Positions 1,117-20,000 of a stretch of DNA of 20,000 nucleotides are shown in pieces (the stretch's first letter is position 1; each line of letters opens with the position of its first letter). Both the position numbers and the translations under genes were made by a program. A model generated the notes under the pieces. The model did not search any database. It worked only from the letters and a program-made list of their open reading frames with translations, and was not told where the DNA came from. The stretch is from an uncultured virus (IMG/VR IMGVR_UViG_3300030117_005941) (taxonomy: Duplodnaviria; Heunggongvirae; Uroviricota; Caudoviricetes): positions 53,555 to 73,554 of IMG/VR virus record IMGVR_UViG_3300030117_005941, one strand, 5' to 3'.

Positions 1117-1395
1117 ATGAAAAAAAGTACATTAAAAAATCTAATTAAAGAAATACTCCAAGAACAACTACAAGGAGCTGCTGTAGTTCCTAATGCTTTT
1201 CCTGCTTCAGGAGGTAAAGTAGCAATAGTTTGTCCTGATGGTTATAATTTTAAAAATGAAAATTTTCAAACATTAGGTCCTGTAGGGCCATCAACTCAAA
1301 TTGTTCACATTGTTGAAGGGTGTATTCCAGATAAAAAAACATTTACAGATAAATTTGGAAATACTGTAAGCCCTATTGGAGCAGGACCTGGTTAA
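1117..1395 (+). CDS. Small hypothetical protein with basic leader ending LIKE-ILQE-Q (candidate processed head protein), 92 aa
   Basis: MKKSTLKNLIKEILQEQ leader resembles those of downstream genes; two Cys (CPDGY, EGC); tight gene packing. Confidence 0.55.
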   Translation: MKKSTLKNLIKEILQEQLQGAAVVPNAFPASGGKVAIVCPDGYNFKNENFQTLGPVGPSTQIVHIVEGCIPDKKTFTDKFGNTVSPIGAGPG

Positions 1396-2789: not shown

Positions 2790-2799
2790 ATATTTATAA
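2790..2799 (+). promoter_or_regulatory. Putative promoter element ATATTTATAA
   Basis: One-mismatch variant of the ATATGTATAA core at 400 and 16919; 17 nt upstream of the ATG at 2817. Confidence 0.45.
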
Positions 2800-2816
2800 C
2801 AAAAACTAACCATTAA

Positions 2817-3350
2817 ATGGAAAAAATTGCAATTTTACCTGGAGGGTTTAAACCTCCCCATGCTGGTCATTACAATATGGCTAAATGGTTAGCTAATAAT
2901 ACTGACGCAGATACAATAGTAGTTAAAATAGGATCAGGAGTAAGAGACGGAATTACAAGAGAAATATCCCTTAAATTATGGAATTTGTATAGAACTTCAG
3001 ATCCTGATGATACTAGTATTTCAATTTTACCTTCAGAATCTCCTTCTCCCGTAAGAGATGTTTACGATTTTATAGAACAAGAAGCTCCTGAAGGATCTAC
3101 TGTTTATTTAGGAATGGGAGAAAAAGATATAGATGATCAAAGATTTAAAAATATAGGAAAATTTGCGGATCCTAAAAATATAAAATTTGAAACTGTATTA
3201 GTACCTCCACAAGCAGGAGGAGTTTCAGGTACTGAAATGAGGAGTTTTATAAAAAATAATGATAAAAAAAGCTTTCAAAAATATTTACCTGACCATTTAA
3301 CATCTGATCAAGAAGAAGAAGCATGGGATATAGTAACTTCTATAAATGAA
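2817..3350 (+). other. Domain: cytidylyltransferase-like (HIGH/HxGH) nucleotidyltransferase
   Basis: AILPGGFKPPHAGH (PGGFKPPHAGH at 2838-2870) and VSGTEMR (SxTxxR, the KMSKS-equivalent motif). Confidence 0.85.
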
Positions 3351-6300: not shown

Positions 6301-6362
6301 CAAATGTACCATTTAAAATTACAGGTAAATTTATTTTAGGTGGGATGGCCTCAGATTTTTAA
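2817..6362 (+). CDS. Multidomain (poly)protein, 1181 aa: HIGH nucleotidyltransferase, HAD phosphatase, basic peptide, DUF192-like, Cys domain, basic domain, ligase-like domain
   Basis: Single uninterrupted ORF. Motifs: PGGFKPPHAGH; YDFDDTL/ILTAR/FIDD; LEVMDTP...PLDIIFI...VLELPGG; GGAAGHMAHPF, KIDG, HEGVVIR, FKITG. Confidence 0.85.
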   Translation: MEKIAILPGGFKPPHAGHYNMAKWLANNTDADTIVVKIGSGVRDGITREISLKLWNLYRTSDPDDTSISILPSESPSPVRDVYDFIEQEAPEGSTVYLGMGEKDIDDQRFKNIGKFADPKNIKFETVLVPPQAGGVSGTEMRSFIKNNDKKSFQKYLPDHLTSDQEEEAWDIVTSINEDLYDPNDHYRDFAKTNDPNPKKPISPSYKYHRAGVYGRMYEQQGGKTLRVYDFDDTLAITRGANIKVKHEDGTIDTLDPAEFAVYQEQPGDKFDFTEFDSVIKEATPIQHIVDMLKKDVNDASVDKVTILTARLLAYPVKRYLREELGLDVYVVAVGSSDPLDKATWIEDHILKGYNDIMFIDDSEPNRKAVSKLKDIHSDIKLDVFHPHELNEEMYGMMTKREKARHKRKLKKIKKDLKRLDKKNRYYEVPKSWRGSLTRKYKRKRRRKRRKRRKMNENATASIKGQFIPLEVMDTPELQVQGMMGRDKLEGGMVFPYDGIDKRTFHTQNCKIPLDIIFIADNEVTKIFHDCPPCQEKQCPKYSGRADNVLELPGGYCEENNINVGDQIGLNTYNLPKPLSEQKEYRPFKDKLIQRYVKACNCKVLDKFGNCPRDFFPYWLNCTIDGDTPKVGDTFIYPINNHKVKVHKVQMGFDAPVVVTDVESTNCGVGPRERKLTKKENIDPKSQAKHKGKSAPYGSAYEPVNEADPKKGTGKKPKGSGRRLYTDENPKDTVKVKFSTRQDIVDTLNKKSFKSKPHKRQSQIINLIHQRVRAALSRTKDPQKKKSLKSAFEYIKKRKEASKKKTQRMKKENVFTKGWWKDTLNEILLKEGGAAGHMAHPFNLPDVNSGSDLKDIFNKSAESLQNNPGSVKIDGVNSSIRLIDLDGEKQFVMDRGSKKELDIKGITKDDLLDRFGDGHGMVKIGGEVLDMFNNALPSIKNDLEKLGVYDDPNILFNMEYVSGKTNVQDYGSNFIAIHGLNKIESKEVEGKRGPLIKRVSSEVSYDKSALQSLLDNLAPTAKEQGFEVYGSVPTEMSKKPNFSSALSQNYTIVSNEGEKTQTLDQWLNELNNIPEEDFIFMNVDNSKKKVGAVSKLVYTTLLKGDNIDELFESEEDKQKAIEGFTTYLATEKLGDEVLKVLNSPMGSVDNHEGVVIRDENIANVPFKITGKFILGGMASDF
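3474..3992 (+). other. Domain: HAD-superfamily phosphatase (Pnkp-phosphatase-like)
   Basis: Motif I DFDDT (from 3504), motif II ILTAR, motif III Lys (LDKA), motif IV MFIDD. Confidence 0.8.
4188..4559 (+). other. Domain: DUF192-like
   Basis: LEVMDTPELQVQGMMGR...GMVF...FHTQNCKIPLDIIFI...PPC...Y...NVLELPGG...INVGD follows the DUF192 pattern (ExAxT...GLM.R...GMLF...FWMKN..PLDI.F...VLE..G). Confidence 0.8.
5310..6362 (+). other. Domain: ATP-dependent ligase-like covalent nucleotidyltransferase fold
   Basis: Motif I KIDG (5430-5441), motif III-like FNMEY (from 5682), motif IV EGVV (6270-6281) and motif V-like FKITG (6312-6326), in the canonical order. Confidence 0.6.
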
Positions 6363-6365
6363 AAT

Positions 6366-9300
6366 ATGAAAAAAACAATTTTACGTAGAATTAGACAAAA
6401 AGCACATAAGTTACTAAAAGAACAAAAAATATTTGATCAAGAATATTTTAGTAATATATTAAAACCACCAACAAGTCCTTTTGACTTAGTATCAAAAATA
6501 CCAAAACCTGATAAAGATCAACCATATCCTTTTGGAAATGGAATAGCAGTCCAATGTAAAAATCAACAACCTGCCTTTGAATTATTTTATGTAGTTTGTC
6601 AAGATGGTGGAGATCTTGGACCTCAATGTGAATGTGAACAATATGAAGTAACTGCTGATTGGATTTGTTGTGATGGTGTTGACAGTTTTACAAATCCTGG
6701 ATTTGTCCCTTATCCAGGTCAATCATATGCAGGTGATGATAGTCTTTATTGTATGGCAGCACCTGGTACTCCAAATACTTTTGAAAATTATAAAGAAGCT
6801 CTTTTACAAAATGCTTGGATAATAAATATTAATTTTAGTAATTGGATAGCAGATGGTTTGCTTAATTTTCAAAGTGGACCTGGAGACATACCTGTTGTAG
6901 GAACAGGTTATTTATCTGAAGAATGTCCTGGATGTATGATAACACAACCTGCACCTCTTTCAGGTAATAATTTAGACATAGCAAATCAACAAAATATGCC
7001 TGATAATTTATCAATGGTACATGATGGTTCATGTGTGTTTGAATGGTGTAATACTCCAGAAGCAGACAATTATTTTTGTAATTCTGAATTAGCCTCAGAA
7101 GATATAGCAGGAATAAATATTAGTTTTAGTGATTGGTGTGTTCCTAATGAAGATGGAATTTTAGTTCTTGATACTGCTATAGGAATTGTACAAGAAGGAG
7201 AACTAACTGAATGTTATGTTGGTGGTTGTACAGATAATGGAACCTTAACTGCTGAAGTTTGGGCTGCAGAATATGCAGGAACAACTCAAACATTAGGAGA
7301 TGGTACTGGTGTATTACCAGATGAATATCCAGGAATGCCTGGAGCTGATAACTATGATCCTTTAGCTACTGTAGATGATGGTTCATGTATATATGATGGA
7401 GATGAAGATGGAGTTTTCTCATTTGATGAAGTAGATGGCTGTACAGATCCTTCAGCTTTTAATTATAATGAAAATGCATCTGAAGATGATGGTACATGTG
7501 TACCTATAATTTATGGTTGTACAGATTCATTAGCTTTTAACTTTGATGAAGAAGCTAATACTTTATGTGAAGATCCTCCAAATCAAATTAATATAGACCT
7601 AAATGGTAATGAAGAAGAATGTATAGAATGTATAGAAAATTTAGGTGGTTGTACAGATAATAGTGCAACTAACTATAACCCTGATGCTACTTTTGATGAT
7701 GATTCATGTTGTTATAATCCAGGTTGTACAGATGTAAATGCTTGTAATTATAGTGAAGCTGCTTGTTTTGATGATGGTTCTTGTGAATATGAATCATGTT
7801 TAGGTTGTACAATAATTGGATTTAATGGTGATGCTTCAGGTATAGGTGCTTATAGTGCTGCTAACAGTACAACATTAAGTGTACCTACTATAGATTATTG
7901 TGTTTATAGTGGTTGTTTAAATAGTGAACAAAATGAAGATGGGTCATATGTTTATGAAAATTATGTTTGTAATGGAGATTATGCTCAATTTTTGTGTACA
8001 TCTATTGATATTGATGGTGATGGAGCTCCAGATTTAGGGGTCCCAATGAGTCAAGAAAGTATAGATCAATATGGTCTTAGTATGGAACCTATAGGTATTT
8101 TTGTTGATAAAGGAACTTGTCAATTAGCTCCTGTATTAGGATGTACAAATCCTGATGCTGAAAATTTTAATCCTGATGCAACTGAAGATGATGGTTCATG
8201 TGAATTTATTCTAGGATGTATGGAAAATACAACAGCTGATTGGAGTTTAGAACCTAATGGATTTATAGTAACTAACTACCAACCAGATGCAACTCAAAAT
8301 TTTGGCTGTAATTACGTTGTTTGTTTAGATGGAAATGCTGACAACTATGTATGTGATGCAGAAGATGGTGTACCATATCTATGTTTACAAAATACAGGAG
8401 ACCCTAATCAAGATTTAGATGATGACTTTATAGATAGTATAGGTGCTACTATTGAAGATTGTAATTATAATGATCAAAATATATTTGATGCTTCAGGTAC
8501 AAATACTTGTTGTTTTAACATTATTCCAGGATGTATGCAAGGAGGAAATACTATTACTAACCCAGGAAATCTTACAGCTGACAATTATGATCCAAATGCT
8601 AACGTAGAATGTGTTGATCCTCCAAACCAAGAAGATAATGACACAGGCCTTCCTTGTGAACCTTGTATATTTTCAGGATGCCCAGATCCAACAGCATGTA
8701 ATAGTATAGTAGGTACTAATATGTTTGGTCTGTTAGGTTATGAAGCATGGGTATATAATGATGATGGTTCATGTGAATATCCTGACACTTGTAATGATTG
8801 TGATGGAAATTACTTAACTGATGGATGTACTGATGAAGCAGCATGTAACTATGATCCAACAGCAGAATGTGGACCTAATGATCAACTTTGTGATTATGGT
8901 TGCTATGGTTGTACAGATGAAGCTGCTGCTAATTATGATCAACTAGCTACTATGGATGATGGTAGTTGTGAGTATGATGAAATGTGTTGGGATATAACAA
9001 TAACACAATGTAATGCAGCTTATTTATCATTTGCTTATCAAATTGCTGAACTAGAAGGAACTAGAGCTCCTGGTGGTCCTGATATGTGGACAAATGTAAC
9101 ACTTAGATGTGTGTCTATAGGATACCCATCAGCTGCAACTGAAATTGGACCTAATGCTCCTGATGGAGAATTTGGAGGTAACCCACCTTTTGTAGATGGA
9201 ACAAGCCCTAATGGTTTAGGAGAATATGTTGTTTATGAAGGTTTTACAGCACAAATGGAAGGAGGACCTGGAGATGATTTAGGAATACCTTACGTACCAG

Positions 9301-10058
9301 CAGCTGTATGTCCTACTGATGCTTTACCTTTAGGTGCTAGTTTAATGAATTTTAATTGGACACAATTTGATCCTAATGATTATGGTAATATAGGTCAAGG
9401 TGGTTGTTGTGTACCTGCATTAGTACATGTAGATTCTGCAGGACATCCTAATGTTTATACAAATGCAGGTACATTGTCTGCAGGTACTAATTTTGGTGAA
9501 CTTGTTCCTAATACAACTGGTCTTTCACAAGCAACAGCTGTTTGTAATACTGAATCACCTTGTGCAATTGAGGTAGGTCCTAATAGTAACTATTATTGTA
9601 ATGGAAATCCAACAACTACTATAGATTTTGATGAGGATGATTTTGAGCCAGATGATGATATAATATATAACCCACCTATTGATGAAGGATTAGTAAATGA
9701 ACAAGCTGACATTCCAACAGGTCTTGGAGTATATGTTGATTATGGAGAACCTTATAGAGATGTACAATGGGGTCAGGATCCTGACGCAATTTGGAGAGTT
9801 ACTAGCGTATCAGAACCTTATTCATCTACAGGAGAAGTACTTTATTTACCTACATCAACTGATGATGAATGTTATGAATACTCAATGAATGGACCATTTA
9901 TGCAAGATGGTCAACCAGAGACAAGAGTTACAAGTACTAGTGATAAATTTACAAATCCAAATAGATCTGTAAATCGCCCTATTAATAGAGATGTTCAAAG
10001 AACAATTAATGAAAGTAAAAGATTAAGAAAAGCTATTAAAAAAATATTTAAAAAATAA
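6366..10058 (+). CDS. Large acidic Cys-rich repeat protein with basic leader (..LLKEQ) and basic tail, 1230 aa
   Basis: About 15 canonical or degenerate GCTDxxAxNY...DDGSC units; leader MKKTILRRIRQKAHKLLKEQ; tail TINESKRLRKAIKKIFKK; no hydrophobic signal peptide. Confidence 0.85.
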   Translation: MKKTILRRIRQKAHKLLKEQKIFDQEYFSNILKPPTSPFDLVSKIPKPDKDQPYPFGNGIAVQCKNQQPAFELFYVVCQDGGDLGPQCECEQYEVTADWICCDGVDSFTNPGFVPYPGQSYAGDDSLYCMAAPGTPNTFENYKEALLQNAWIININFSNWIADGLLNFQSGPGDIPVVGTGYLSEECPGCMITQPAPLSGNNLDIANQQNMPDNLSMVHDGSCVFEWCNTPEADNYFCNSELASEDIAGINISFSDWCVPNEDGILVLDTAIGIVQEGELTECYVGGCTDNGTLTAEVWAAEYAGTTQTLGDGTGVLPDEYPGMPGADNYDPLATVDDGSCIYDGDEDGVFSFDEVDGCTDPSAFNYNENASEDDGTCVPIIYGCTDSLAFNFDEEANTLCEDPPNQINIDLNGNEEECIECIENLGGCTDNSATNYNPDATFDDDSCCYNPGCTDVNACNYSEAACFDDGSCEYESCLGCTIIGFNGDASGIGAYSAANSTTLSVPTIDYCVYSGCLNSEQNEDGSYVYENYVCNGDYAQFLCTSIDIDGDGAPDLGVPMSQESIDQYGLSMEPIGIFVDKGTCQLAPVLGCTNPDAENFNPDATEDDGSCEFILGCMENTTADWSLEPNGFIVTNYQPDATQNFGCNYVVCLDGNADNYVCDAEDGVPYLCLQNTGDPNQDLDDDFIDSIGATIEDCNYNDQNIFDASGTNTCCFNIIPGCMQGGNTITNPGNLTADNYDPNANVECVDPPNQEDNDTGLPCEPCIFSGCPDPTACNSIVGTNMFGLLGYEAWVYNDDGSCEYPDTCNDCDGNYLTDGCTDEAACNYDPTAECGPNDQLCDYGCYGCTDEAAANYDQLATMDDGSCEYDEMCWDITITQCNAAYLSFAYQIAELEGTRAPGGPDMWTNVTLRCVSIGYPSAATEIGPNAPDGEFGGNPPFVDGTSPNGLGEYVVYEGFTAQMEGGPGDDLGIPYVPAAVCPTDALPLGASLMNFNWTQFDPNDYGNIGQGGCCVPALVHVDSAGHPNVYTNAGTLSAGTNFGELVPNTTGLSQATAVCNTESPCAIEVGPNSNYYCNGNPTTTIDFDEDDFEPDDDIIYNPPIDEGLVNEQADIPTGLGVYVDYGEPYRDVQWGQDPDAIWRVTSVSEPYSSTGEVLYLPTSTDDECYEYSMNGPFMQDGQPETRVTSTSDKFTNPNRSVNRPINRDVQRTINESKRLRKAIKKIFKK
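6930..8969 (+). repeat. Intragenic array of GCTDxxAxNYxxxAxxDDGSC repeats, many with insertions
   Basis: Examples: GCTDPSAFNYNENASEDDGTC, GCTDNSATNYNPDATFDDDSC, GCTDVNACNYSEAACFDDGSC, GCTNPDAENFNPDATEDDGSC, GCTDEAAANYDQLATMDDGSC. Confidence 0.9.
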
Positions 10059-10061
10059 GTT

Positions 10062-10637
10062 ATGTTAAAAAAAGAGTTTAAACGTAGAGATGTAGAAAGA
10101 ATGAGAAACCTAATTAAAGGTGATGTTGGTTCTTCATCTGAAACTCAAATTGGTTACAATAAAAAAAGAATTGAATATAAAGAAGGAGACATTTGGACAG
10201 AAGGAAGAAAAACATGGACTATAAAAAATGGAATAAAAAAAACTGTATCAAAATTAAGTTCAATAAGAAAAGAAATATTTACTCCCTTATGTTGTCCTAA
10301 ATGTAGTAAAGTAATAAAACATCCTTTAGACAAGAGTAATTATAAAGTTCATAAAAAATGTCATGATTGTGTTATAGAATTTGAACATAAACTTAGAATA
10401 AAAGGTAAATATGATGATTATATAAAAAAATTAAAAACTAAAAATGCTCTTGACATAATTAATGAAACAGAAGCATATTTATTAGATATGGTTAACACAT
10501 CTAATGAAGGGTATGTTTCTGAAGATGGTGTAGTTGAAAAATGGGTAGGAGGTATTAATAAAAAAGAATTTACTAAAAAAATAAAAGATATTACCAAAGC
10601 ACGTAAAGAATACGTAGAAAAAGAATCAAATGGATAA
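10062..10637 (+). CDS. Hypothetical phage protein with CxxC...CxxC zinc finger, 191 aa
   Basis: CPKC-x17-CHDC; KEGDIWTEGRKTWTIKNGIK; overlaps the next gene by 8 nt. Confidence 0.7.
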   Translation: MLKKEFKRRDVERMRNLIKGDVGSSSETQIGYNKKRIEYKEGDIWTEGRKTWTIKNGIKKTVSKLSSIRKEIFTPLCCPKCSKVIKHPLDKSNYKVHKKCHDCVIEFEHKLRIKGKYDDYIKKLKTKNALDIINETEAYLLDMVNTSNEGYVSEDGVVEKWVGGINKKEFTKKIKDITKARKEYVEKESNG

Positions 10638-11898
10638 GTTAAAAGAATATATTATAGAACTTATACAAGAATATACAGGTACTGGAGCTGGTGGAGGAAA
10701 CGCTACTGATGGTAATGATATAACTTCTCCTAGACCTTTTGCAGATGATATGTCTGAAATAGAAAATTATATCTTTAAAAACGTTTATGGAGGAGAAGGA
10801 GGACATTATAGAAAAGATCAATATAATGGAAACTACCCTAACAGACATAAAACAACTATGTTTGAAAATGAAGATCAAGTAAGAGAATACATAAGAAATG
10901 AAATAAGAAGTTATTATGGGGTACATGATACTTATGGAGCAAGTCCCCGTCAAAAAAGAAATTTAAGTGGATTTATAGGGGTACAAGAACAAATGGATCC
11001 TGGTAAACAAGCAGAATTTACAAGAAGAAAAATAGATCTTCAAAAAGATTTAGCACAAGTTGATATAGAAATGACTAGAGAACAATTAAAAGCTATTAGT
11101 GCACAAACACAACAAGCAACAAGTCAAATATCTCAACAAATTGCCCAAACAGAACAACAATTACAAGATGCAATTCAACAAAAAAGAGATCAAACAAAAC
11201 AAATAATAGATGTAGAAAGAGAAATATCTGACTTAGAAGAAGATGAAGAAATTACACCAGATTTAAAAAAGAAAAGAAGAGAAGAATTAGATAAAGAATT
11301 ATCAACAGCAAGAGGCTCTCTTGAAGGAGTTAAAGACCAAATTATACAATTTAAAAAAACAAAAGATCAACTATTCGGTCAACAAGCTCAAAATTCAGCT
11401 AATGCTTCTCAACAAGTAAAACAAATTAGGGACCAAATAAGACAACAAACTAAAGCCATGAATTCAATAGGAAAAACACAACCAGGACAAACAATGCGAG
11501 AATATTTTAAAGATACCCAAAGTAACTTAATGGAAAGAATGGATTCTTATAGAAAAGAAGCTAAAAGAAACATTCTTATGGAAGGAGTTATGAAAACATT
11601 TTTTGAAATGTTTGATAATGGTATGACAAATGAAGAAATAATTCAAGATTATGCTTCAAAAGGAACCCAAGTTCCTGAAACTTTTGTAGGTACTGCTAGA
11701 AAACAGTATGAAACTTATAAAAAGATGAAATTAGAACTAGACATGAGTGAAAAAGAATTTAAAAATTCAGCTAAAGAAATAGTAAATAATCCTGAAATGA
11801 TGGAACGAGACTCAGAAGAAAAACAATTAGCTTCAGGGCTTTTTAAAGAAGAAATATTAAAAAAACAAATAATAAAAGAACTTAATAAAATAAAATAA
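10630..11898 (+). CDS. Coiled-coil protein with multiple x-x-Glu sites (candidate prohead core/internal protein), 422 aa
   Basis: Leader MDKLKEYIIELIQE; Gln-rich heptad region 10990-11502; basic tail ILKKQIIKELNKIK; no Cys. Confidence 0.65.
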   Translation: MDKLKEYIIELIQEYTGTGAGGGNATDGNDITSPRPFADDMSEIENYIFKNVYGGEGGHYRKDQYNGNYPNRHKTTMFENEDQVREYIRNEIRSYYGVHDTYGASPRQKRNLSGFIGVQEQMDPGKQAEFTRRKIDLQKDLAQVDIEMTREQLKAISAQTQQATSQISQQIAQTEQQLQDAIQQKRDQTKQIIDVEREISDLEEDEEITPDLKKKRREELDKELSTARGSLEGVKDQIIQFKKTKDQLFGQQAQNSANASQQVKQIRDQIRQQTKAMNSIGKTQPGQTMREYFKDTQSNLMERMDSYRKEAKRNILMEGVMKTFFEMFDNGMTNEEIIQDYASKGTQVPETFVGTARKQYETYKKMKLELDMSEKEFKNSAKEIVNNPEMMERDSEEKQLASGLFKEEILKKQIIKELNKIK

Positions 11899-11899
11899 G

Positions 11900-12166
11900 A
11901 TGGGGAAAACAGCAACAACAGTATCAGCAAGTGTTACTTATACAGCAAGTGCTGGAGATACAATAACAAGAATATATGCACCTGCAGCTGCAACTTTAGC
12001 TAGTGTTGAATTTGGACAAAATCAAAATCCATATAGTGCAGATGCAATAACAAGTCGAGTAGCTACAATAGCAATACCTGCAGGAACATATTTAGAAGGA
12101 CCTATAGTTCAATTTAAAAATAATGATCCTAGTAATATAGTATTAGTATATCTTGATCAAAAATAA
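11900..12166 (+). CDS. Small beta-rich hypothetical protein, possibly structural, 88 aa
   Basis: Ala/Thr/Val-rich; IPAGTYLEG; its stop overlaps the next start (TAATG). Confidence 0.6.
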   Translation: MGKTATTVSASVTYTASAGDTITRIYAPAAATLASVEFGQNQNPYSADAITSRVATIAIPAGTYLEGPIVQFKNNDPSNIVLVYLDQK

Positions 12167-12609
12167 TGATGAATATTAAAAAAGTAATAAGACGATTAGT
12201 AGAAGCTGAGGTAACTAAAAGGTACCCTATGCCTCCTGAAATTAAGGATGCATTAGAAAATAAACTTAAAATAAATCCTATACCTCGTTTTGTAAATAAC
12301 TTAAAAGCAGTTAATTCTATTCCTGCTTCTTATAGAATATTTTTACATAATAATCAGTTTTTTGATATAATTTATGAAGAATTTTCATTAATGGTTAAAA
12401 TAGGAACTAAAGAATATTACTTAGCAGACTTACAAGAAAGAAATAATGCTATAAAAGACATAAATAGACTATTAACAGGTCCTATTATGAAAAAACAAGG
12501 AGAAGAAGAAGAAGCATCTCCAAAAGGAGGAGGAGCTCCTTCACCCCCATCATTACCAACTATACCGCCCCCACCACCACCACCAACCCCTGATGAACCT
12601 GAAGCATAA
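12166..12609 (+). CDS. Hypothetical protein with basic leader (..RLVE) and Pro-rich C-terminus, 147 aa
   Basis: MMNIKKVIRRLVEAE; C-terminal EEEEASPKGGGAPSPPSLPTIPPPPPPPTPDEPEA; TAATG coupling at both ends. Confidence 0.7.
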   Translation: MMNIKKVIRRLVEAEVTKRYPMPPEIKDALENKLKINPIPRFVNNLKAVNSIPASYRIFLHNNQFFDIIYEEFSLMVKIGTKEYYLADLQERNNAIKDINRLLTGPIMKKQGEEEEASPKGGGAPSPPSLPTIPPPPPPPTPDEPEA

Positions 12610-12986
12610 TGGAATATAAAAAAATATTTGGAGAATTATACAGTAATGCTAAAGAAAAATTTAGCATTAAACAACCTCCTAAACTTTTTTTAAAACAAGA
12701 CCCTAAAAATGCTAAAAATATATTAGGTCGTACAGCATACTATGATCCTGGAGAACAAACTATTGTTATATTTATAACAGATAGACATCCTAAAGATATA
12801 CTTAGATCTTTTTGTCATGAAATAATACATCATGTACAAAATGAAAGAGGTGATTTAGATGTAAGTGGTAATATGTCTCCAACATACGCTCAAGATGATA
12901 AACATATGAGAGCAATGGAAAAAGAAGCATACTTAGAAGGAAACTTATTATTAAGAGATTATGAAGATAATAAAAAATATAAATAA
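12609..12986 (+). CDS. Small zincin-like HEXXH metallopeptidase, 125 aa
   Basis: DILRSFCHEIIHHVQ (HEXXH) with a downstream MEKEAY third-ligand motif and an upstream TAYYDP...IVIFI strand pattern. Confidence 0.8.
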   Translation: MEYKKIFGELYSNAKEKFSIKQPPKLFLKQDPKNAKNILGRTAYYDPGEQTIVIFITDRHPKDILRSFCHEIIHHVQNERGDLDVSGNMSPTYAQDDKHMRAMEKEAYLEGNLLLRDYEDNKKYK

Positions 12987-15721
12987 TGGGGAAGTTTAAT
13001 TATAAAAAATGGAAATCTAAGTATCTTCTAAAAGAACAAGCAAATACTGTAACTTATTTAGGTTGCTCAATGTGTTCTGCTGATAATCCCTATTATGCAG
13101 GTATGCAGGTGTGTACTCCTACTATTCCTTTTACATTAAATACAGATGATATTGTAAATAACGATGATGGTTTTACTGATCCTTTTGTTTTAAATTTTGA
13201 TGAATATCTACCAGGTTTTGAATCTATAGGATATTATCATGATTATATGTTTCAAAATGTCGATATAGTTGGAACCCCTAGTATAGGATGTATTGGAGGA
13301 GGTGATGGTTATAATCCTTATGGTTGTACAGATCCTAATGCATATAATTATGACCCAAATGCTGAAATTGATGATGGTTCATGTGATTCACAACTACCAG
13401 ACGAACCTTGTCCTCCACTTGAAATTATAGCACAACCAGATTTTATATCTGAAAATCCTACTACATTTAATTGGACAGGAGGATGTCCTAATTTACCTAT
13501 ATATGCTACTTTTAGTGGTGCAGGAGCAGGACAAATAAATGTAAATTGGGAAGCAGGAGGACAATATATCCCAAACACAGGAGAATTTACATGGAATTTA
13601 CCCTGTGAGGAATTAACAGTAGGTATGGAATATTTTTACTACATAGCACAAGTAGTTGATGAAAATGTAGCATATGGTTCAGATAACATTTATAACATGA
13701 ATGGGGACGAACAAGGAGGTTATGGTTTTTATCTTTATTCTAATAATACTTTAGGAACAATATATATTGACCCAATTTTATGTCCTGATCAAAGTGGTTG
13801 TACAGATGAAAATGCTGAAAATTATAACCCTGAAGCTACATATGATGATGGTTCATGTGAATATCGTCCTGTAGTTGGTTGTACTGACGAAACAGCTATA
13901 AATTATGATGAAGGAGCTGTTGAAGATGATGGAAGTTGTGTATATCCTGAACCCGGATGTACAGATGAAAATGCAATCAATTATAATCCAGAAGCAGGTA
14001 TAGATGATGGATCTTGTGAATATGAAGGTTGTACTGATGAAAATGCAACTAATTATGATGAAACTGCTAATGTAGATGATGGTTCTTGTGTTTACCCTGT
14101 ACCTGGATGTACAGAAGAAGGTGCATGTAATTATGATGAAAATGCTGAAGTAAATGATGGAAGTTGTGAGTATGAATCATGTGCAGGTTGTATGGATAAT
14201 TCAACATATTTTAATATAGAAACTCAACAAGAAGAATTAATAGCTGTTAATTATGACCCAGAAGCTACACTTCCAGGTCCTTGTCAAGGATGTGCTGATC
14301 AACAATCAGATAATGCTAGTTTTATTAGTGTATCACAAAACTTTGCAGTTGGTTCAGGTAATGCTAATCAATTATATATTGATGTTCTTCCTGAAGGATG
14401 GAACACAACAGAACTATGGACAAATTTTGATTATGGTTGTCTTGATTGTTGTGTTTATTCAGGATGTTCAGATCCAGAAGCAGATAACTTTTGGCCAATG
14501 GCAGATCCTAATAATCAACCAACTACTTATGGAGCAACATGGACATTTATAGATGATGGTAGTTGTGAATATACAATACCAGGTTGTACAGACCCACAAG
14601 CAGGAAATTATAACCCAGATGCTACAGTAGATGATGGTACATGTAATTATTTTACTACGGGTGATCCTATAGAAGGTTGTACAGATGAAAGTGCTGACAA
14701 TTACAATGAAGAAGCTACTCAAGATGATGGTTCTTGTGAATATACAGTATTTACATGTGAAACCCTTACTAGTGGCACACCTGCTCAAATTATTTCTGAA
14801 GAATGTACTGAATCAATAAGTTCAGAACCTGCAGACGGAGAAACAACTTTTACTACTTTAGAATCTTGTCAAGATATTACAGGATGTGTAAAACCTGAAG
14901 ATGAATATGGGGGTTGTACAGATATTACTGCAACAAATTATGACTCAAATGCTAGTTATGATGATGGAAGTTGTGAATATCCTGAAGATCCTTGTACTCA
15001 ATTTAACACTTATGATGAAGAAGGTCAAGCACAAGCATGCTATATGACTTTTGAAGCACCTGTTTATGATCCATCAACAGGAACCGGTTTTGGTCAAGAA
15101 GTTATAGATTTCTTTAATGATCTTACTAATAATGGTGAATGTTGCCCTGAACAACCAGAACCAGAACCACGTTATACTTGTTTACCAACAGTAGGATCAG
15201 ACACTCAATATTGTGTAGAAGATCCTAATGGTGCTTTTACATCTGAATCAGAATGTAACGAATCATGTCCTGAAATTAATTGTGTTGTTCATCTTGATAC
15301 TATAATATGGCCAGGAACAGGATTTAATAATGCTGAAGAGTTTTGTGGTAGATGTGAAGTAGGAGGATATGAAGCAGCAGAAATGCAAATAAGTACTTCA
15401 ACAGGACAAATGGCTAATTGTGGTTGTTGTGAAGAAGTTGATAATACTAATTATGCAACAGATATGATTACAGGATGTGATGGATTTAATTCTATAGGTT
15501 TTCCTCAAAGTTTTAGAGATCTTATTTGTGAACAATGTGAAGATCCTAATTATGTGAATATACACTGTGAATGTTGTGAAGAAGGAGTTAATTATAATAT
15601 AGATGCAGTTACAGATAATCCAGACCCAGGTACTCCATCTTTTCCAATTAGACCTACACCTGATCCGGAAATAAATAGAATGCAAAAACTAGCAGGACTA
15701 AAAAATAAAAAAAGAAAATAA
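12986..15721 (+). CDS. Acidic Cys-rich mosaic repeat protein with leader (..YLLKEQ) and RMQKLAGLK tail, 911 aa
   Basis: 9 canonical and about 3 degenerate GCTD..DDGSC repeats; an Ig-like-looking insert (FNWTGG...IPNTGEFTWNLP...YFYYI); C-terminal CxxC...CxCC modules. Confidence 0.85.
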   Translation: MGKFNYKKWKSKYLLKEQANTVTYLGCSMCSADNPYYAGMQVCTPTIPFTLNTDDIVNNDDGFTDPFVLNFDEYLPGFESIGYYHDYMFQNVDIVGTPSIGCIGGGDGYNPYGCTDPNAYNYDPNAEIDDGSCDSQLPDEPCPPLEIIAQPDFISENPTTFNWTGGCPNLPIYATFSGAGAGQINVNWEAGGQYIPNTGEFTWNLPCEELTVGMEYFYYIAQVVDENVAYGSDNIYNMNGDEQGGYGFYLYSNNTLGTIYIDPILCPDQSGCTDENAENYNPEATYDDGSCEYRPVVGCTDETAINYDEGAVEDDGSCVYPEPGCTDENAINYNPEAGIDDGSCEYEGCTDENATNYDETANVDDGSCVYPVPGCTEEGACNYDENAEVNDGSCEYESCAGCMDNSTYFNIETQQEELIAVNYDPEATLPGPCQGCADQQSDNASFISVSQNFAVGSGNANQLYIDVLPEGWNTTELWTNFDYGCLDCCVYSGCSDPEADNFWPMADPNNQPTTYGATWTFIDDGSCEYTIPGCTDPQAGNYNPDATVDDGTCNYFTTGDPIEGCTDESADNYNEEATQDDGSCEYTVFTCETLTSGTPAQIISEECTESISSEPADGETTFTTLESCQDITGCVKPEDEYGGCTDITATNYDSNASYDDGSCEYPEDPCTQFNTYDEEGQAQACYMTFEAPVYDPSTGTGFGQEVIDFFNDLTNNGECCPEQPEPEPRYTCLPTVGSDTQYCVEDPNGAFTSESECNESCPEINCVVHLDTIIWPGTGFNNAEEFCGRCEVGGYEAAEMQISTSTGQMANCGCCEEVDNTNYATDMITGCDGFNSIGFPQSFRDLICEQCEDPNYVNIHCECCEEGVNYNIDAVTDNPDPGTPSFPIRPTPDPEINRMQKLAGLKNKKRK
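13796..14167 (+). repeat. Five tandem GCTD..DDGSC repeats, 72-81 bp period
   Basis: Unit starts at 13796, 13877, 13955, 14027 and 14105; codons are diverged but the protein consensus is conserved. Confidence 0.9.
15440..15593 (+). repeat. Copy 1 of a 154-bp ungapped inter-gene duplication (copy 2 at 16560-16713)
   Basis: Manual alignment gives about 30 mismatches in 154 (about 80% identity); encodes DNTxYATDMITGCDGFN...FRDLICxQCxDPxYVNxHCxCCEEGVN. Confidence 0.9.
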
Positions 15722-15722
15722 A

Positions 15723-16919
15723 ATGAAATTAAAATTAAAAAATATCATTAAAGAACAAAATCTTGGACCTGGACAAGGATGTTCTGATCCTGCTGCATTA
15801 AATTATGACCCAAATGCTAATGGTGATTCTCAATATGGTGCTTTTATTTGTCAGTATGATTATGGATGTGCTAATTTTAGTCAATGGGCACTTCAACTTC
15901 ATGGATTAGCTGTATTAAATGAACAACTTAATAATATACCTTTTCCTAATCAAGCAGCTGTTAATCAAGGATTAGCTAATGATCCTGTTGCTCCTAATGA
16001 AATGGAAGATTACATATGTAATGTTATATGTAATACTAGTGTTAACATAAATCCAGGACAATATTGCCCTGCTTGTTGGGCAGGACAAGGAGGTTTTGAT
16101 TTTAATAATCCTATGAACAGTTATAACATTGGGTTATCTATGTGTACATGTTGTCAAGATGTACCTATAGAAGGTTGTACAGATCCTACTTCAGAAAATT
16201 ATAATCCAGAAGCTTCTATTGATGATGGGAGTTGTATATATCCTACAACAAATTATTCATGTATGCAAGCAAGTATAGGAGGAGGTGTTATTAATGGTAA
16301 TTGTGTTTTAGATGAAAATGGTCCTTATAGTTCATTAGAAGAATGTGAAATGGATGGATGTTCAGCATGTATGAATATTGATTTAAATGATTATTTTGCA
16401 GATTGTGGTACTCCAGCTGGAACAAGTGATATATGTGCAGGATTTAATAGTGCTCAAGAATTTTGTGGTAGATGCGCAGTTGCACCTTCAAATACTAACG
16501 AATGGGCATTACAAAATCTACCATCACATATAACTTGTGATTGTTGTGAAGGACAGATTGATAATACGGGTTATGCAACAGATATGATAACAGGTTGTGA
16601 CGGATTTAATCACCCAAATTTCCCTCAAGATTTTAGAGATTTAATTTGTAATCAGTGTTTAGATCCTACTTATGTAAATGTGCATTGTGATTGTTGTGAA
16701 GAGGGAGTTAATTTTGAACCTGAAGGAATGCCATTAGCTCCTGACACAGCTAGTCCAGAAGGAATGCCTAGTCCAGAAGGAATACCTACTATAGGTACTC
16801 CTGATAAACCTAAATATCCTAAATATCAAAAGAAACTTTTAAAACAAAAACCATTTTTAAAAGAATCTATAATTAATAGGTTTAAAAAATTAGCAGGAAT
16901 AAAACCTGAAAAAAAATAA
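15723..16919 (+). CDS. Cys-rich mosaic paralog with leader (..IIKEQ) and RFKKLAGIK tail, 398 aa
   Basis: Two GCxD repeats, one NGPYSSLEEC module and three CxCC-ending modules; tail FLKESIINRFKKLAGIKPEKK. Confidence 0.85.
   Translation: MKLKLKNIIKEQNLGPGQGCSDPAALNYDPNANGDSQYGAFICQYDYGCANFSQWALQLHGLAVLNEQLNNIPFPNQAAVNQGLANDPVAPNEMEDYICNVICNTSVNINPGQYCPACWAGQGGFDFNNPMNSYNIGLSMCTCCQDVPIEGCTDPTSENYNPEASIDDGSCIYPTTNYSCMQASIGGGVINGNCVLDENGPYSSLEECEMDGCSACMNIDLNDYFADCGTPAGTSDICAGFNSAQEFCGRCAVAPSNTNEWALQNLPSHITCDCCEGQIDNTGYATDMITGCDGFNHPNFPQDFRDLICNQCLDPTYVNVHCDCCEEGVNFEPEGMPLAPDTASPEGMPSPEGIPTIGTPDKPKYPKYQKKLLKQKPFLKESIINRFKKLAGIKPEKK
16560..16713 (+). repeat. Copy 2 of the 154-bp inter-gene duplication
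   Basis: Aligns without gaps to 15440-15593. Confidence 0.9.
16750..16785 (+). repeat. 18-bp tandem duplication (SPEGMP/SPEGIP)
   Basis: ctagtccagaaggaatgc followed by ctagtccagaaggaatac; a partial third copy, cctgaaggaatgcc, at 16719. Confidence 0.85.
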
Positions 16920-16929
16920 TATGTATAAT
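16917..16929 (+). promoter_or_regulatory. Putative promoter element TAATATGTATAAT
   Basis: Identical to 398-410; 15 nt upstream of the holin ATG. Confidence 0.5.
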
Positions 16930-16944
16930 TAAAAATAAAACGTT

Positions 16945-17337
16945 ATGAAAGTGTTAAATAAGTTATTTTCCGGAGGAGCTAGTAAATTAGTTGAATCGGT
17001 AGGAGGTGTATTAGATAATGTAATAACCACAAAAGATGAAAAATTAGAAGCAAAAAGAAAATTAAAAGAACTAATATTAAGTCATGAAGCTGAAATGGAA
17101 CGTAATATAACTGACCGTTGGCAAGCTGATATGAATTCAGATAGTTGGTTAAGTAAAAATGTAAGACCAATGATTCTTATATTTCTTGTTGTCTCTACAG
17201 TTCTTATGATATTTATAGACGCAGGAACTATACAATTTACTGTTGAAGAAAAATGGACAGACCTGCTTCAGCTTGTATTAATTACAGTGATTGGTGCCTA
17301 TTTTGGTGGTAGATCATTAGAAAAAAGAAAAAAATGA
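16945..17337 (+). CDS. 3TM-type holin (GTA holin family), 130 aa
   Basis: RWQADMNSDSWLSKNVRP, then two hydrophobic segments (MILIFLVVSTVLMIFI; LLQLVLITVIGAYF), then YFGGRSLEK, the GTA_holin_3TM signature. Confidence 0.8.
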   Translation: MKVLNKLFSGGASKLVESVGGVLDNVITTKDEKLEAKRKLKELILSHEAEMERNITDRWQADMNSDSWLSKNVRPMILIFLVVSTVLMIFIDAGTIQFTVEEKWTDLLQLVLITVIGAYFGGRSLEKRKK

Positions 17338-17382
17338 CAATAGAAAAATTTGATTACAAAAAATGGGTAGTAGAAAATAAAT
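17328..17382 (+). repeat. 55-bp direct repeat spanning the start and leader, copy 1 (copy 2 at 18104-18158)
   Basis: aaaaaaATGacaatagaaaaatttgattacaaaaaatgggtagtagaaaataaat; 2 mismatches versus copy 2. Confidence 0.95.
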
Positions 17383-18113
17383 ACGGCTCTTTAAAAGAAC
17401 AAATAACACAAGCTGAAACATATATTGGGTGTGGGTTATGTGATGATTCATCACAAACCCCTGGAGAGTATGCTTGTGCTCCTGGAATAGAATTTCAAAT
17501 TACTCCTGATATGACAAATACTAACGTAAATCCTAATAGTAATTGGGATGTAGGTACACTTACATCAGATGAAATTGTAGGAGGATTTGAAAGTATTGGT
17601 TATGAAGGAACTCGACTATACCGAGAATCAATGATAGATGGAGTAAATTATTATGACTATGGTGGAATAGAATATTGGTGCCCATCAGGTAGTGCAATGA
17701 CACCAACAGATGGTCCTACAGTAACAGCAAGTACTTCTTCAGATGCCTTTACAGGAGCTGCAGGGGGAGATGCAACTAATTTTACTCAAGGAGACTTTGA
17801 TTTTAATACAGACTGTGGTCCATTTAATGAATTACCACAAGACTTTAAAGATCTTATTTGTCAATCTTGTGAAGATCCTACTTACATTAGTATGCAATGT
17901 GAATGTTGTAATCAAGAATCAGATACACCAAATCAAGCAGTTCCTGTTAAAACACCAAATAAAGGACCTGAAAAAGATCCAGATAAAGGACCTGATAAAT
18001 TAAAACAAAAATCTAAACCAGTAGTACCTCCACCTCCTAAAAAACAAGATAAACGAGATTTAGGAAGATTAAAAGAAATAATAGCAGATACTATAAAACA
18101 ATTAAAAAAATGA
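17334..18113 (+). CDS. Cys-rich mosaic paralog with KFDYKKW..SLKEQ leader, 259 aa
   Basis: Shares TY(I/L)GCxxC...GFESIGY with the 911-aa protein and PQDFKDLICQSCEDPTY..CECC with the 911-aa and 398-aa proteins; Pro/Lys linker; tail RLKEIIADTIKQLKK. Confidence 0.85.
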   Translation: MTIEKFDYKKWVVENKYGSLKEQITQAETYIGCGLCDDSSQTPGEYACAPGIEFQITPDMTNTNVNPNSNWDVGTLTSDEIVGGFESIGYEGTRLYRESMIDGVNYYDYGGIEYWCPSGSAMTPTDGPTVTASTSSDAFTGAAGGDATNFTQGDFDFNTDCGPFNELPQDFKDLICQSCEDPTYISMQCECCNQESDTPNQAVPVKTPNKGPEKDPDKGPDKLKQKSKPVVPPPPKKQDKRDLGRLKEIIADTIKQLKK

Positions 18114-18158
18114 CAATAGGAAAATTTGACTACAAAAAATGGGTAGTAGAAAATAAAT
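18104..18158 (+). repeat. 55-bp direct repeat, copy 2
   Basis: aaaaaaATGacaataggaaaatttgactacaaaaaatgggtagtagaaaataaat. Confidence 0.95.
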
Positions 18159-19258
18159 TTGGTAAAACATCTTCTTTTTCTCACTATGGTTCATTAAATG
18201 AACAACAAACAGGAAGTTTAACATGTCCTGAAGGAACAGAAATAAATACAACAAGTAATTATGGAGCAATGTATTGTGCTTCTGGTAGTGAAGGTCCTGG
18301 TTTTAATTCAGATGGAACTTGGGCTATTACAGGATATCCATCAACTATAACTTCAGGTTTTGAAGAATATTGTTGTACAGGAAGTTTAGATACAGGAGCA
18401 ACGGGTTCAAATTATTCTTGTAATGTTTGTACTGGATGTGTAGAAGATTCAAATGGTCCTTTTGGTTCATTAGAAGAATGTCAAGCATCAGGATGTTTTG
18501 AAGGAAGCTTAGAAGAATATGCAATATCTTTAGGAATATCACCTGGAGTAACTGGTGTTGATGGTACAACTATGTCAGCAGAAGACCAATATTGCATTAA
18601 ATGTCAATCAAATTCTTGGCCTGACGATATAGCACAAAAATGTGCTTGTTGTAATACTGATTATGAATATGAAGATAATGTAGTAACTTATAATCCTGGT
18701 CAAGCAGGAATACCTCCTAAAGATCCAGATAAAGGTCCAGGTAAATTTCCTCAAAAAAGACAACAAAGATCTAGAAGAGGTTTAAGAGAATTTATTACAA
18801 ATGAAGTTAAAAAAGAACTTAAAAAATTAGAAGAACGTAATATATGTCAAACATTTGCAAACTTCTTAGCTACAGGTTTACAAATGCCTTTATCACAAGC
18901 TCAATTTTGTCAAAGATGTAGTGATACAGGAAATAATACTGCAGGAAGTGAGTATTGTGGTTGCTGTACCTCTAATGTAAAACCATCTAGACCAATGAGA
19001 GAAGTTGAGGAAGAGGATCTAACTGGTGGGGGAAAATGTCCTGAAGGTTACATGTACATTTTAAATAACCCTAGTGATCCATTTGATGGTAGTTTTAGTT
19101 GTAGTCAATTATTAGATACTGTAACTTTACAGGGTATGGGTACTCAACAAGGAAAAGGACCTAAAACAAGAGCAAGAAGTATTAGTCCACCTATAAAAAA
19201 ACCTAAGAAAAATTTCCCTGGGTCACCAGGAGGTTATAATCCTTTTGGACCTCAATAA
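18110..19258 (+). CDS. Cys-rich mosaic paralog with KFDYKKW..SLNEQ leader and internal basic spacer, 382 aa
   Basis: CPEG modules, NGPFGSLEEC module, two CxxC...CxCC modules; internal RRGLREFITNEVKKELKKLEE. Confidence 0.85.
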   Translation: MTIGKFDYKKWVVENKFGKTSSFSHYGSLNEQQTGSLTCPEGTEINTTSNYGAMYCASGSEGPGFNSDGTWAITGYPSTITSGFEEYCCTGSLDTGATGSNYSCNVCTGCVEDSNGPFGSLEECQASGCFEGSLEEYAISLGISPGVTGVDGTTMSAEDQYCIKCQSNSWPDDIAQKCACCNTDYEYEDNVVTYNPGQAGIPPKDPDKGPGKFPQKRQQRSRRGLREFITNEVKKELKKLEERNICQTFANFLATGLQMPLSQAQFCQRCSDTGNNTAGSEYCGCCTSNVKPSRPMREVEEEDLTGGGKCPEGYMYILNNPSDPFDGSFSCSQLLDTVTLQGMGTQQGKGPKTRARSISPPIKKPKKNFPGSPGGYNPFGPQ

Positions 19259-19298: not shown

Positions 19299-19340
19299 AG
19301 AGAGCTGTGGCCTCATTTGGTCTACAGCTCTCTTTTTATT
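19299..19340 (+). terminator. Intrinsic (Rho-independent) terminator
   Basis: AGAGAGCTGTGGCC-TCATTT-GGTCTACAGCTCTCT: a 10-bp perfect stem extended by G-U/G-C pairs with one bulge, followed by TTTTATT. Confidence 0.8.
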
Positions 19341-19352
19341 ATATATAGCAAT

Positions 19353-20000
19353 ATGGAAAACACATTAATAATAGGAGCCGGAGTTGCAGGAGTAAATGCA
19401 GCTACAAAATTAGTTGATAACAATTATAAAGGTAATATTACTGTAATTGATATGGGTAATGATCCTTTTAATCGTAAACCTGAAGAAGTAATGACGGGTT
19501 TTATGGGTGCTGGTGGATGGTCAGATGGTAAATTAACTTATCATACATCTATAGGAGGTCATATGTCTAAATACTGTGGTGATGAAAAAGCTATGGAATT
19601 AATGGATCAGGTTATTGATAATTTTAGAAGATTTCACCCAAAACCTGAAGTAATTCAATGTTCTCATCCCGTAGAAGAACCGGAATTTATTAAGCCTTAT
19701 TTTGGTTTGCGATTATTCCCTGTATGGCATATAGGAACTGATTATCTACATGAAATTGGCAAGAATTGGTATACATATTTGACCGATAATAATGTTAGAT
19801 TTAGATGGAAAGAAAAAGTAACTAATATTGATTTTGATAAACAAGAAGTTTATACAGATATATCACAATTTAACTATGATAGACTTATTTTTGGTGTAGG
19901 CAAATCAGGAATTGACTTTGGAAAACAATTAGCTGAAAAATATGATTTACCAACAGAACCAAAACCAGTACAAATAGGAGTTAGATTTGAAGCACCACAA
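19353..20000 (+). CDS. FAD-dependent oxidoreductase (COG2509-like), 3'-truncated; not in the supplied ORF track
   Basis: Manual translation: MENTLIIGAGVAG (Rossmann GxGxxG)...ITVIDMG...GFMGAGGWSDGKL...WHIGTD...FGVGKSG...VQIGVRFEAPQ; open to the window end. Confidence 0.85.
   Translation, partial: MENTLIIGAGVAGVNAATKLVDNNYKGNITVIDMGNDPFNRKPEEVMTGFMGAGGWSDGKLTYHTSIGGHMSKYCGDEKAMELMDQVIDNFRRFHPKPEVIQCSHPVEEPEFIKPYFGLRLFPVWHIGTDYLHEIGKNWYTYLTDNNVRFRWKEKVTNIDFDKQEVYTDISQFNYDRLIFGVGKSGIDFGKQLAEKYDLPTEPKPVQIGVRFEAPQ

Follow-up and report, generated by a model that had tools for sequence, protein, structure and literature searches.

In bacteriophage T4, the prohead protease gp21 cuts after the motif L/I-X-E, and the capsid-targeting sequence (CTS), formed by the first 10 residues of the internal protein IPIII, is enough to carry proteins, beta-galactosidase among them, into the core of the prohead. 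Alt loses six N-terminal residues (ITE-6) and 63 C-terminal residues (LTE-619), and the internal proteins vary between relatives, as set out in sections of PMC9026906, PMC5694885 and PMC3012670. In phiKZ and SPN3US, too, a diverged homologue of gp21 processes many head-internal proteins after Glu, and the propeptides are believed to direct these proteins to the prohead (PMC5694885). These propeptides exceed 100 residues and carry the motif S/A/G-x-E or A-x-E; the phages belong to another lineage, for which no terminal tag shared with the scaffold has been described. Here we examine five acidic, Cys-rich proteins, together with one small protein that has a similar N-terminus, encoded by an uncultured member of the Caudoviricetes. 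They lie in the last 20 kb (positions 53,555 to 73,554; the whole 20,000-nt stretch is called the window below) of the 73,554-bp IMG/VR virus record IMGVR_UViG_3300030117_005941. With somewhat better than even confidence, we read the five large proteins as internal head cargo, whose terminal peptides would act, like the T4 CTS, as propeptides for loading into the prohead and would be cut at [LI]-x-E.

The similarity to IPI–III and Alt lies in short N-terminal propeptides (10–20 aa in T4) that end in L/I-x-E and are removed by gp21 in T4, in highly variable cargo behind a conserved tag, in the trimming of Alt at both termini and in the loading of large foreign proteins, as far as these are covered in the same three sources. 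No homology of the bodies themselves to those of T4 was detected (there is no PHROG, Pfam or NCBIfam match); the resemblance would be one of mechanism only. In contrast with T4, where the internal proteins are described as small and basic (PMC9026906, in part), the cargo in the window is acidic and Cys-rich, reaches 1230 aa and contains extracellular-type repeats; it also has three classes of leader and a C-terminal or internal tag in common with the C-terminus of the scaffold. The first-pass annotation, which was made by a model from the letters alone, had called this the best candidate for an undescribed system. That description does not hold, as the mechanism (CTS plus gp21) is already known from T4; what is new is the clade, the tags and the unusual cargo.

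All six ORFs were found on the + strand where that annotation had placed them, and every leader and tail string that it quoted was confirmed by re-translation. They are given below with the repeats of the second protein; an oblique stroke marks a putative cleavage site, and the CTD repeat and the leader types are described further on.

6366..10058, + strand: 1230-aa acidic protein with 72 Cys; leader at residues 1–19 (nt 6366-6422, MKK..LLKE/Q); basic tail after I-N-E at residues 1217–1230 (nt 10014-10055); five CTD repeats by regular expression.
12986..15721, + strand: 911-aa acidic protein with 60 Cys; type-C leader at residues 1–17 (nt 12986-13036); nine CTD repeats and two CxxC..CxCC modules; tail EINRMQKLAGLKNKKRK at nt 15668-15718.
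13748..14185, + strand: five tandem CTD repeats (GCTDxxAxNYxxxAxxDDGSCxY) within the 911-aa protein, modelled as small beta-hairpin units.
15723..16919, + strand: 398-aa Cys-rich protein with 30 Cys; short leader MKLKLKNIIKE/Q (nt 15723-15755); a single canonical CTD repeat and three CxxC..CxCC modules; tail SIINRFKKLAGIKPEKK after L-K-E (nt 16866-16916).
17334..18113, + strand: 259-aa protein with 10 Cys; type-C leader at residues 1–22 (nt 17334-17399); tail IIADTIKQLKK after L-K-E (nt 18078-18110).
18110..19258, + strand: 382-aa protein with 22 Cys; type-C leader at residues 1–31 (nt 18110-18202); internal basic helix RGLRE/FITNEVKKELKKLEE/ between two Cys-rich parts (nt 18776-18835).
1117..1395, + strand: 92-aa protein with 2 Cys, not acidic; type-B leader MKKSTLKNLIKEILQE/Q (nt 1117-1164).

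The five large genes sum to 9555 nt, in line with the earlier estimate of about 9.5 kb. Their bodies were said to be almost free of Lys and Arg in the larger members, and this is borne out by 18 K+R against 204 D+E and 72 Cys in the 1197-aa body of the 1230-aa protein, and by 13 K+R, 166 D+E and 60 Cys in the body of the 911-aa protein; K and R are concentrated in the first and last 50 residues. As had also been noted, no hydrophobic, signal-peptide-like run is present at the N-terminus of any of the five (by inspection; a crude script gave scores of 0–2 for the cluster mates P0001 and P0002). None matches a Pfam, PHROG or NCBIfam family. They have neither a hydrophobic N-terminus nor a Por_Secre_tail domain (PF18962), and so lack the features of type A sorting by the type IX secretion system (T9SS). 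A protein atlas search with the 259-aa protein gave no usable match.

By blastp, the five proteins, which the first-pass annotation had called a family, form a mosaic of paralogues. The C-terminal 185–225 residues of the 911- and 398-aa proteins are 39% identical (E=6e-33), the N-terminal regions of the 911- and 259-aa proteins are 40% identical, and the 259- and 382-aa proteins share 28% identity (E=5e-13). The CTD repeat is common to the 1230-, 911- and 398-aa proteins and absent from the 259- and 382-aa proteins, which have one and two CxxC..CxCC modules, respectively; the 1230-aa protein has none. The description as a family of five is accurate within the window only. A sixth Cys-rich paralogue of 1288 aa lies elsewhere in the record (genome 25437-29303; L010:6537-10403), with at least seven CTD repeats, a signal-peptide-like start and a Por_Secre_tail domain (1.4e-11; TIGR04183 2.1e-11), and is, as judged from these domains, a T9SS substrate. 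As the record encodes a protein with a hydrophobic N-terminus and Por_Secre_tail, the host is a T9SS-bearing member of the Bacteroidota. A 276-aa homologue of the 1288-aa paralogue, with the same sorting domain, is encoded by a related contig (G004, below).

The relatives of the record indicate the type of head to which these proteins would belong. Two cultured phages, Flavobacterium phage vB_FspM_immuto (160 kb) and Microcystis phage Mel-JY01 (190 kb), encode homologues of its gp6-like baseplate protein with 45–46% identity along the entire length, and G004, a 64.6-kb IMG/VR contig, is syntenic with the record (blastp identities of 26–93%). Past the holin and oxidoreductase genes, which are also found at the end of the window, G004 encodes a T4-type terminase, a portal protein (Portal_T4, 9.7e-69), a prohead protease (Peptidase_S77, 4.6e-32), a protein of 513 aa in the scaffold position (acidic, with 112 D+E and 2 Cys) and a major head protein (Gp23, 1.6e-79). 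The same head module is annotated in immuto and Mel-JY01. By this synteny, the record is a fragment of a phage with a T4-type head, and the source phage is probably a marine flavobacterial myovirus that packages the five cargo proteins. A CheckV estimate of 100% completeness for the linear 73.5-kb record was rejected, because G004 runs past the end of the record into the head module; sheath and polymerase genes are also missing, and the relatives are 160–190 kb in length. A protease of the Peptidase_S77 gp21 family was not found in scans of the 73.5-kb fragment, whereas G004 has one (PF03420, 4.6e-32).

All six leaders are 11–31 residues long and end in LKE, IKE, LNE or LQE, followed by Q. The 57 called proteins of the record contain 20 copies of the motif [LI]xEQ. 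Six copies lie within residues 5–35, and they are exactly those of the five Cys-rich proteins and the small protein encoded at 1117 (1.5 expected, binomial P=0.0026; one leader type is common to three of the six, so that the cases are partly dependent). Two further types of N-terminal leader were seen in immuto and G004: type B, 'MKKSxLxxhIKExL', and type C, 'FDxKKWxVENK..LLKE'. Hidden Markov models (HMMs) of the leaders, trained only on those of these other phages, were matched in the record by the 259-aa (independent E-value 3.7e-7), 382-aa (1.2e-6) and 911-aa (0.08) proteins for type C, and by the protein encoded at 1117 (1.5e-4) for type B, with all of these matches starting at residues 1–5. 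HMM A matched the C-terminus of the 398-aa protein (1.8e-4). Among 231 ORFs of independent IMG/VR loci, 16/16 HMM matches at E<=0.01 were N-terminal, 10 of them outside the training set.

In the relatives, the carriers of these leaders include small proteins of 70–200 aa encoded between the portal and protease genes (198 and 201 in immuto; h47 in G004). No leader was seen on any recognisable replication enzyme; the first-pass annotation had named an equal frequency on such enzymes as a point that would refute its reading. The idea that type-B and type-C leaders mimic the scaffold N-terminus or the propeptide of the capsid protein was rejected, as neither HMM gave a significant match to nine scaffolds and nine capsid proteins.

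The junction between leader and body was surveyed in 239 repeat-bearing homologues that start with M, in which [LI]xEQ was sought in residues 5–38. It is present in 10/15 proteins with basic, non-signal N-termini, in 0/118 with signal-peptide-like N-termini and in 8/106 with other N-termini (Fisher's test, P=8e-10, for rows that are not independent). In addition, homologous bodies occur with differing leader types, joined at the same ..[IL]xEQ junction. For example, the body of the 398-aa protein is found with a type-B or a KLAGI leader at the same joining point; its close homologues have the N-terminus 'MKKxLKERFQKLAGIITEQ' and the C-terminus 'LKERLKKLAGIKKKK'. At the locus of the 1230-aa protein, its G004 counterpart (h29) has a similar leader and tail and an unrelated body (best E 0.62), and the Cys-rich cassettes vary between close relatives.

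At the other end, the tails of the 1230-, 398- and 259-aa proteins start after I-N-E, L-K-E and L-K-E, respectively, and the 259-aa protein has just two [LI]xE sites, which bracket its body. The claim that each member is bracketed by a leader and a tail fails for the 382-aa protein, which lacks a terminal tail and has instead an internal basic helix flanked by L-R-E and L-E-E. This is analogous to the internal tag of h49 in G004, which is encoded between the protease and scaffold genes and has L-K-E on both sides of the tag. In two leader-bearing, Cys-rich proteins of G004, h3 (2234-4186) and h33 (35071-36774), a hydrophobic helix follows immediately after the putative cleavage site (LNE/FWGIIAGYVANWLY.. 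and LNE/FWEAILGAAAWWLV..).

A KLAG tail motif had been proposed for the family. It stands for the 911- and 398-aa proteins; in its strict form it is found on only these two of the five, and the third carrier of a KLAG/KLAN tail in the record is a Cys-free acidic protein of 149 aa outside the window. A DNA pattern for E-R-F-[KQ]-K-L-A-G-I was found at 45 IMG/VR loci, where eight copies are N-terminal (at residues 7–8, after MKK..), 37 are C-terminal (at most four residues from the end) and none is internal. In 596 Gb of bacterial genomes the same pattern gave 16 loci, 10 of them mid-protein in ordinary large proteins and the other six in tiny frames or near the N-terminus of the frame. As the bacterial matches are mostly mid-protein, the restriction to termini is a property of this phage clade.

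Most of the 45 carriers are 340–470 aa in length, mostly Cys-free and hyperacidic. Thirteen of the 45 loci were scanned, with 81/94 of their ORFs covered. The carrier lies directly upstream of the major head protein gene (phrog_138) in 8/8 scanned loci that show a capsid gene, and downstream of the head maturation protease (phrog_207) in five of those eight. The protein that ends in ERFKKLAGI therefore occupies the position of the scaffold, between the head protease and the major head protein. A tblastn search of GenBank phages with the scaffold matched only immuto and Mel-JY01 (five records). The scaffold-position protein ends in ..KEIISEVSEQVSRWQKLAGIIK (..RWQKLAGIIK) in immuto, ..KKILNESNNVVERMKKLAGIVK (..ERMKKLAGIVK) in Mel-JY01 and ..KEIISESNNMVSRFQKLANIQINE (..SRFQKLANI..) in G004. 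Nine aligned scaffolds all have the tag residues R, F, K, L, A and I, and all have a Glu seven residues upstream. The tail motif 'RF[KQ]KLAGI' is thus the C-terminus of the scaffold protein of this clade. The scaffolds are Cys-free and hyperacidic, lie between the protease and capsid genes and have conserved N- and C-terminal helices; the five window proteins are Cys-rich, are encoded at other places in the genome and have nothing but the C-terminal tag in common with the scaffolds. A predicted complex of the capsid protein (A4) with the C-terminal 74 residues of the scaffold (A3) had a score of 0.00 against a mark of 0.32, which weighs neither way. A literature search for the string 'KLAGI' gave unrelated items only among the matches listed.

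Short terminal peptides that address a protein to the inside of an HK97-fold shell include the C-terminal peptide of the P22 gp8 scaffold and the cargo-loading peptides of encapsulins, and the latter may sit at either terminus. These have no sequence relation to the KLAGI tag, which also appears to be cut off afterwards.

The strongest indications of prohead targeting are that a tag is shared with the scaffold and is confined to termini in this clade alone, that the junctions read [LI]xE(Q), that bodies are exchanged while the tags around them are conserved, and that a syntenic relative has an S77 protease. We propose that the cargo proteins are made in the cytoplasm, without signal peptides, and that short basic amphipathic peptides recruit them into the core of the assembling prohead. 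The targeting set would comprise three classes of N-terminal leader and the C-terminal or internal tails, including 'RF[KQ]KLAGI', the scaffold's own C-terminal peptide. A gp21-type (Peptidase_S77) prohead protease would then cut behind the Glu of [LI]-x-E, where each tag meets the body, and the acidic Cys-rich bodies would be released with Gln as the new N-terminus. The bodies may stay in the head and exit with the DNA at the next infection. They are mosaics of extracytoplasmic-type modules, chiefly a two-Cys repeat that is also found in host T9SS surface proteins, and for this reason would most likely act or become oxidized outside the reducing cytoplasm, either in virions after their release or in the envelope of the next cell to be infected.

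The earlier proposal of T4-like propeptides removed at Glu by a gp21-type protease is partly supported by these data, which include the leaders on small head-module proteins of relatives and the precedent of two-end trimming in Alt, and is left short by the record itself. The record has no recognisable terminase, portal, protease, scaffold or capsid gene in Pfam and PHROG scans, which counts against prohead loading on its face; because the record is a fragment, the missing head genes are uninformative. Family searches of the record for capsid and protease genes also found none, and carry little weight, as the control gave no signal anywhere.

Other observations weigh against the assignment as head cargo. 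HMM B failed to recognise the leaders of the 1230- and 398-aa proteins, and the 911-aa tail is preceded by D-P-E, not [LI]-x-E. Relatives of gp21 of the phiKZ type prefer S/A/G-x-E, according to part of PMC5694885. Net charges of -150 to -186 would be awkward beside packed DNA, as would the synthesis of disulfide-type modules in a reducing cytoplasm. A search of the literature on immuto and Mel-JY01 gave no virion proteomic study among the items listed. Finally, [LI]xE shows no depletion in the bodies: the 1230-aa protein has 8 sites (8.3 expected) and the 911-aa protein has 5 (6.8 expected). The bodies would need protection by folding; as a sign of protease exposure, the result is neutral.

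This chance-level frequency of internal sites would fit a role in which the proteins are loaded into the prohead as auxiliary core or scaffold mass, cut up and expelled, with nothing delivered to the next host. T4 core proteins gp22, gp67 and gp68 are cut into fragments, according to sections of PMC9026906 and PMC5694885. Structured, conserved Cys-rich modules would be costly as disposable scaffold, however; the true scaffold of the clade is Cys-free, and the cassettes differ from one close relative to another in the manner of T4 internal proteins. A throw-away role is thus considered very unlikely, and head cargo that keeps its body remains the preferred reading.

The structured nature of the bodies is clearest for the CTD repeat, a two-Cys unit of 26–30 residues with the pattern C-T-D-x2-A-x-N-Y-x3-A-x2-D-D-G-S-C. 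An AlphaFold2 model of residues 255–400 of the 911-aa protein, which contain the five tandem repeats, has a predicted local distance difference test (pLDDT) score of 92.9 and shows small hairpin units. A model of the 398-aa protein was poor (mean pLDDT 57.6), and Foldseek found nothing in the PDB for it at E<=0.001. A wide VIA-align search with the repeat model gave no hit at Z>=2. The repeat profile matched residues 330–354 of MPEG-1 (perforin-2) in the PDB (chain 6u2j_A, E=1.5e-5), and one repeat unit superimposes on this stretch over 24 residues at a root-mean-square deviation of 0.6 A with 58% identity. A review describes a small region of MPEG-1 between MACPF and MABP as 'EGF-like' and lumenal (PMC7593815). 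By description, the match would correspond to this small linker after the MACPF domain. The animal ectodomain has a single copy of the unit.

At E<=1e-3 the repeat was found in 4919 cluster representatives, and single proteins had as many as 50 matched stretches. Many of the carriers are Bacteroidota T9SS cargo with signal peptides, Por_Secre_tail or CHU_C tails, or FN3 or PKD domains; the window proteins share the repeat 'GCTDxxAxNYxxxAxxDDGSCxY' with them and differ in having no signal peptide and no Por_Secre_tail. Of 264 homologues, 14 have phage-type leaders, and in none of these did a crude script detect a T9SS-like tail. A literature search for the string 'DDGSC' gave only unrelated items among the matches listed. 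As its carriers are T9SS proteins, the lumenal linker of MPEG-1 and external virion proteins, the CTD module belongs to oxidizing, extracytoplasmic settings.

This distribution counts against a place inside the head. Elsewhere, the repeat is found on secreted or surface T9SS proteins, on cyanophage 'virion structural protein' genes among tail-fibre and short-tail-fibre genes and on a crassvirus muzzle-domain protein, as well as on FN3 proteins of Virus NIOZ-UU157 and on proteins with PF25729. The five proteins might instead lie on the outside of the virion, for example as adhesin-like whiskers or as accessories of the fibres or baseplate, in which the repeats bind host surface glycans or proteins and the basic end-helices are not cleaved and serve in attachment or oligomerization. 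Where the window has the 911- and 398-aa genes, G004 has a tail-spike-like gene (End_tail_spike, 1.1e-6), and tail-fibre-like genes lie just upstream in the window. Such a role leaves unexplained the identity of the tail peptide with the scaffold's own C-terminus, the leaders that end in [LI]xEQ, the same leaders on 70–200-aa proteins between portal and protease in relatives and the internal tag flanked by two L-K-E sites. An external location is, in our estimation, improbable.

The same four objections apply to a second alternative, in which these would be late proteins outside the virion, kept in the cell or freed at lysis (for example, Ca- or metal-binding or envelope-directed proteins), with the basic ends as membrane-binding or self-association helices. 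In addition, it offers no reason for a tag shared with the scaffold or for the restriction of the tag to termini in this clade. The genes do flank that of the holin, the modules are of an extracytoplasmic type and one paralogue would be exported by T9SS. A phage thioredoxin-like protein with a signal-peptide-like start is encoded at genome 24193-24558 (L010:5293-5658), three genes upstream of the 1288-aa paralogue. In one RNA library, contigs of 590–1120 nt cover four of the genes; DNA carry-over is possible, and they are a weak hint of expression. Overall, we regard a non-virion role as unlikely, and prohead loading is still preferred.

In a bolder form of the head cargo proposal, clip-off tags, one of which the phage has taken from its own scaffold, would bring disulfide-forming repeat proteins of an extracellular type and as large as 130 kDa into the head, and these would be injected into the envelope or periplasm when the next Bacteroidota cell is infected. 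In that compartment they would fold oxidatively and act on surface or T9SS-related targets, in parallel with the T9SS-secreted paralogue. We advance this as a speculation with a low probability of being correct in full. If it were true, KLAGI and two of the leader classes would provide T4-type capsids with a natural and portable code for cargo loading, usable at either terminus.

The window contains 17 tightly packed genes, all on the + strand, without large intergenic gaps, and has a G+C content of about 30%. The T4 late-promoter consensus, taken here as TATAAATA, gave five matches against 5.17 expected. The stretch is present in 20 public marine runs from nine studies. Searches of GenBank phages with the window (megablast) and with the 911-aa protein (tblastn) gave no match, and a related-locus search with the 398-aa protein found only a shorter contig that is 100% identical. 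The rest of the record encodes gp25- and gp6-like baseplate proteins, a B12-type ribonucleotide reductase, an M15 peptidase and three giant Cys-free proteins. The window also encodes a primase (phrog_47, 1.4e-47). Other features in the window and the record are as follows.

16945..17337, + strand: holin gene between the Cys-rich genes (GTA_holin_3TM, 5.6e-6; phrog_3427, 5.6e-31).
19317..20000, + strand: FAD/NAD(P)-binding oxidoreductase, truncated by the end of the record; a full 427-aa gene in G004, followed by the T4-type head module.
1408-1836 (window): SegE-type GIY-YIG homing endonuclease (2e-24), between the tail-fibre-like genes and the primase.
2817-6362 (window): 1181-aa nucleotidyltransferase/DUF192 fusion, with an NMNAT/cytidylyltransferase-like N-terminus and DUF192 at residues 469–568 (4e-21).
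12609-12986 (window): 125-aa protein with an HExxH motif (..FCHEIIHHVQ..), directly upstream of the 911-aa gene; 73% identity in G004.
5-16978 (genome, start of the record): the three giant Cys-free proteins, of 2416, 1859 and 1250 aa; only the third has matches (LysM, 2.7e-9; weak PD-(D/E)XK).

The SegE-type gene has the same position in G004, and immuto has a gene of similar size, annotated as NAD synthetase, upstream of its primase. The 1181-aa fusion also holds a Cys-containing insert and long K/R-rich linkers. Its homologues are shorter (892 aa in G004; 907 aa in immuto, annotated as NMNAT), and the blocks that align to the G004 homologue total far below 1181 residues. A 422-aa Q-rich protein (window 10630-11898) corresponds to two genes of G004, h32 (34817-35065, 82 aa, with a type-B leader) and h34 (36781-38628, 615 aa). 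The Cys-rich gene h33, which has a type-C leader, lies between them, reflecting either an insertion in G004 or a fusion in the window. The HExxH protein gave weak hints only (DUF6647 and Hvo_1808), and PDB sequence searches with this protein and with the G004 oxidoreductase found nothing meaningful.

If the five proteins are indeed prohead cargo, capsid targeting by clip-off propeptides, known in detail from just T4 and a few giant phages, would be in wide use in an abundant uncultured marine clade. The code would be readable from sequence, as three leader classes and a tail that copies the scaffold C-terminus, and this simplicity would make head cargo predictable from metagenomes. The tags could also be tried for the loading of foreign proteins into capsids. 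The cargo itself, huge, acidic and composed of modules known from surface proteins, would be unexpected and would raise the question of what phages deliver to the envelopes of the Bacteroidota.

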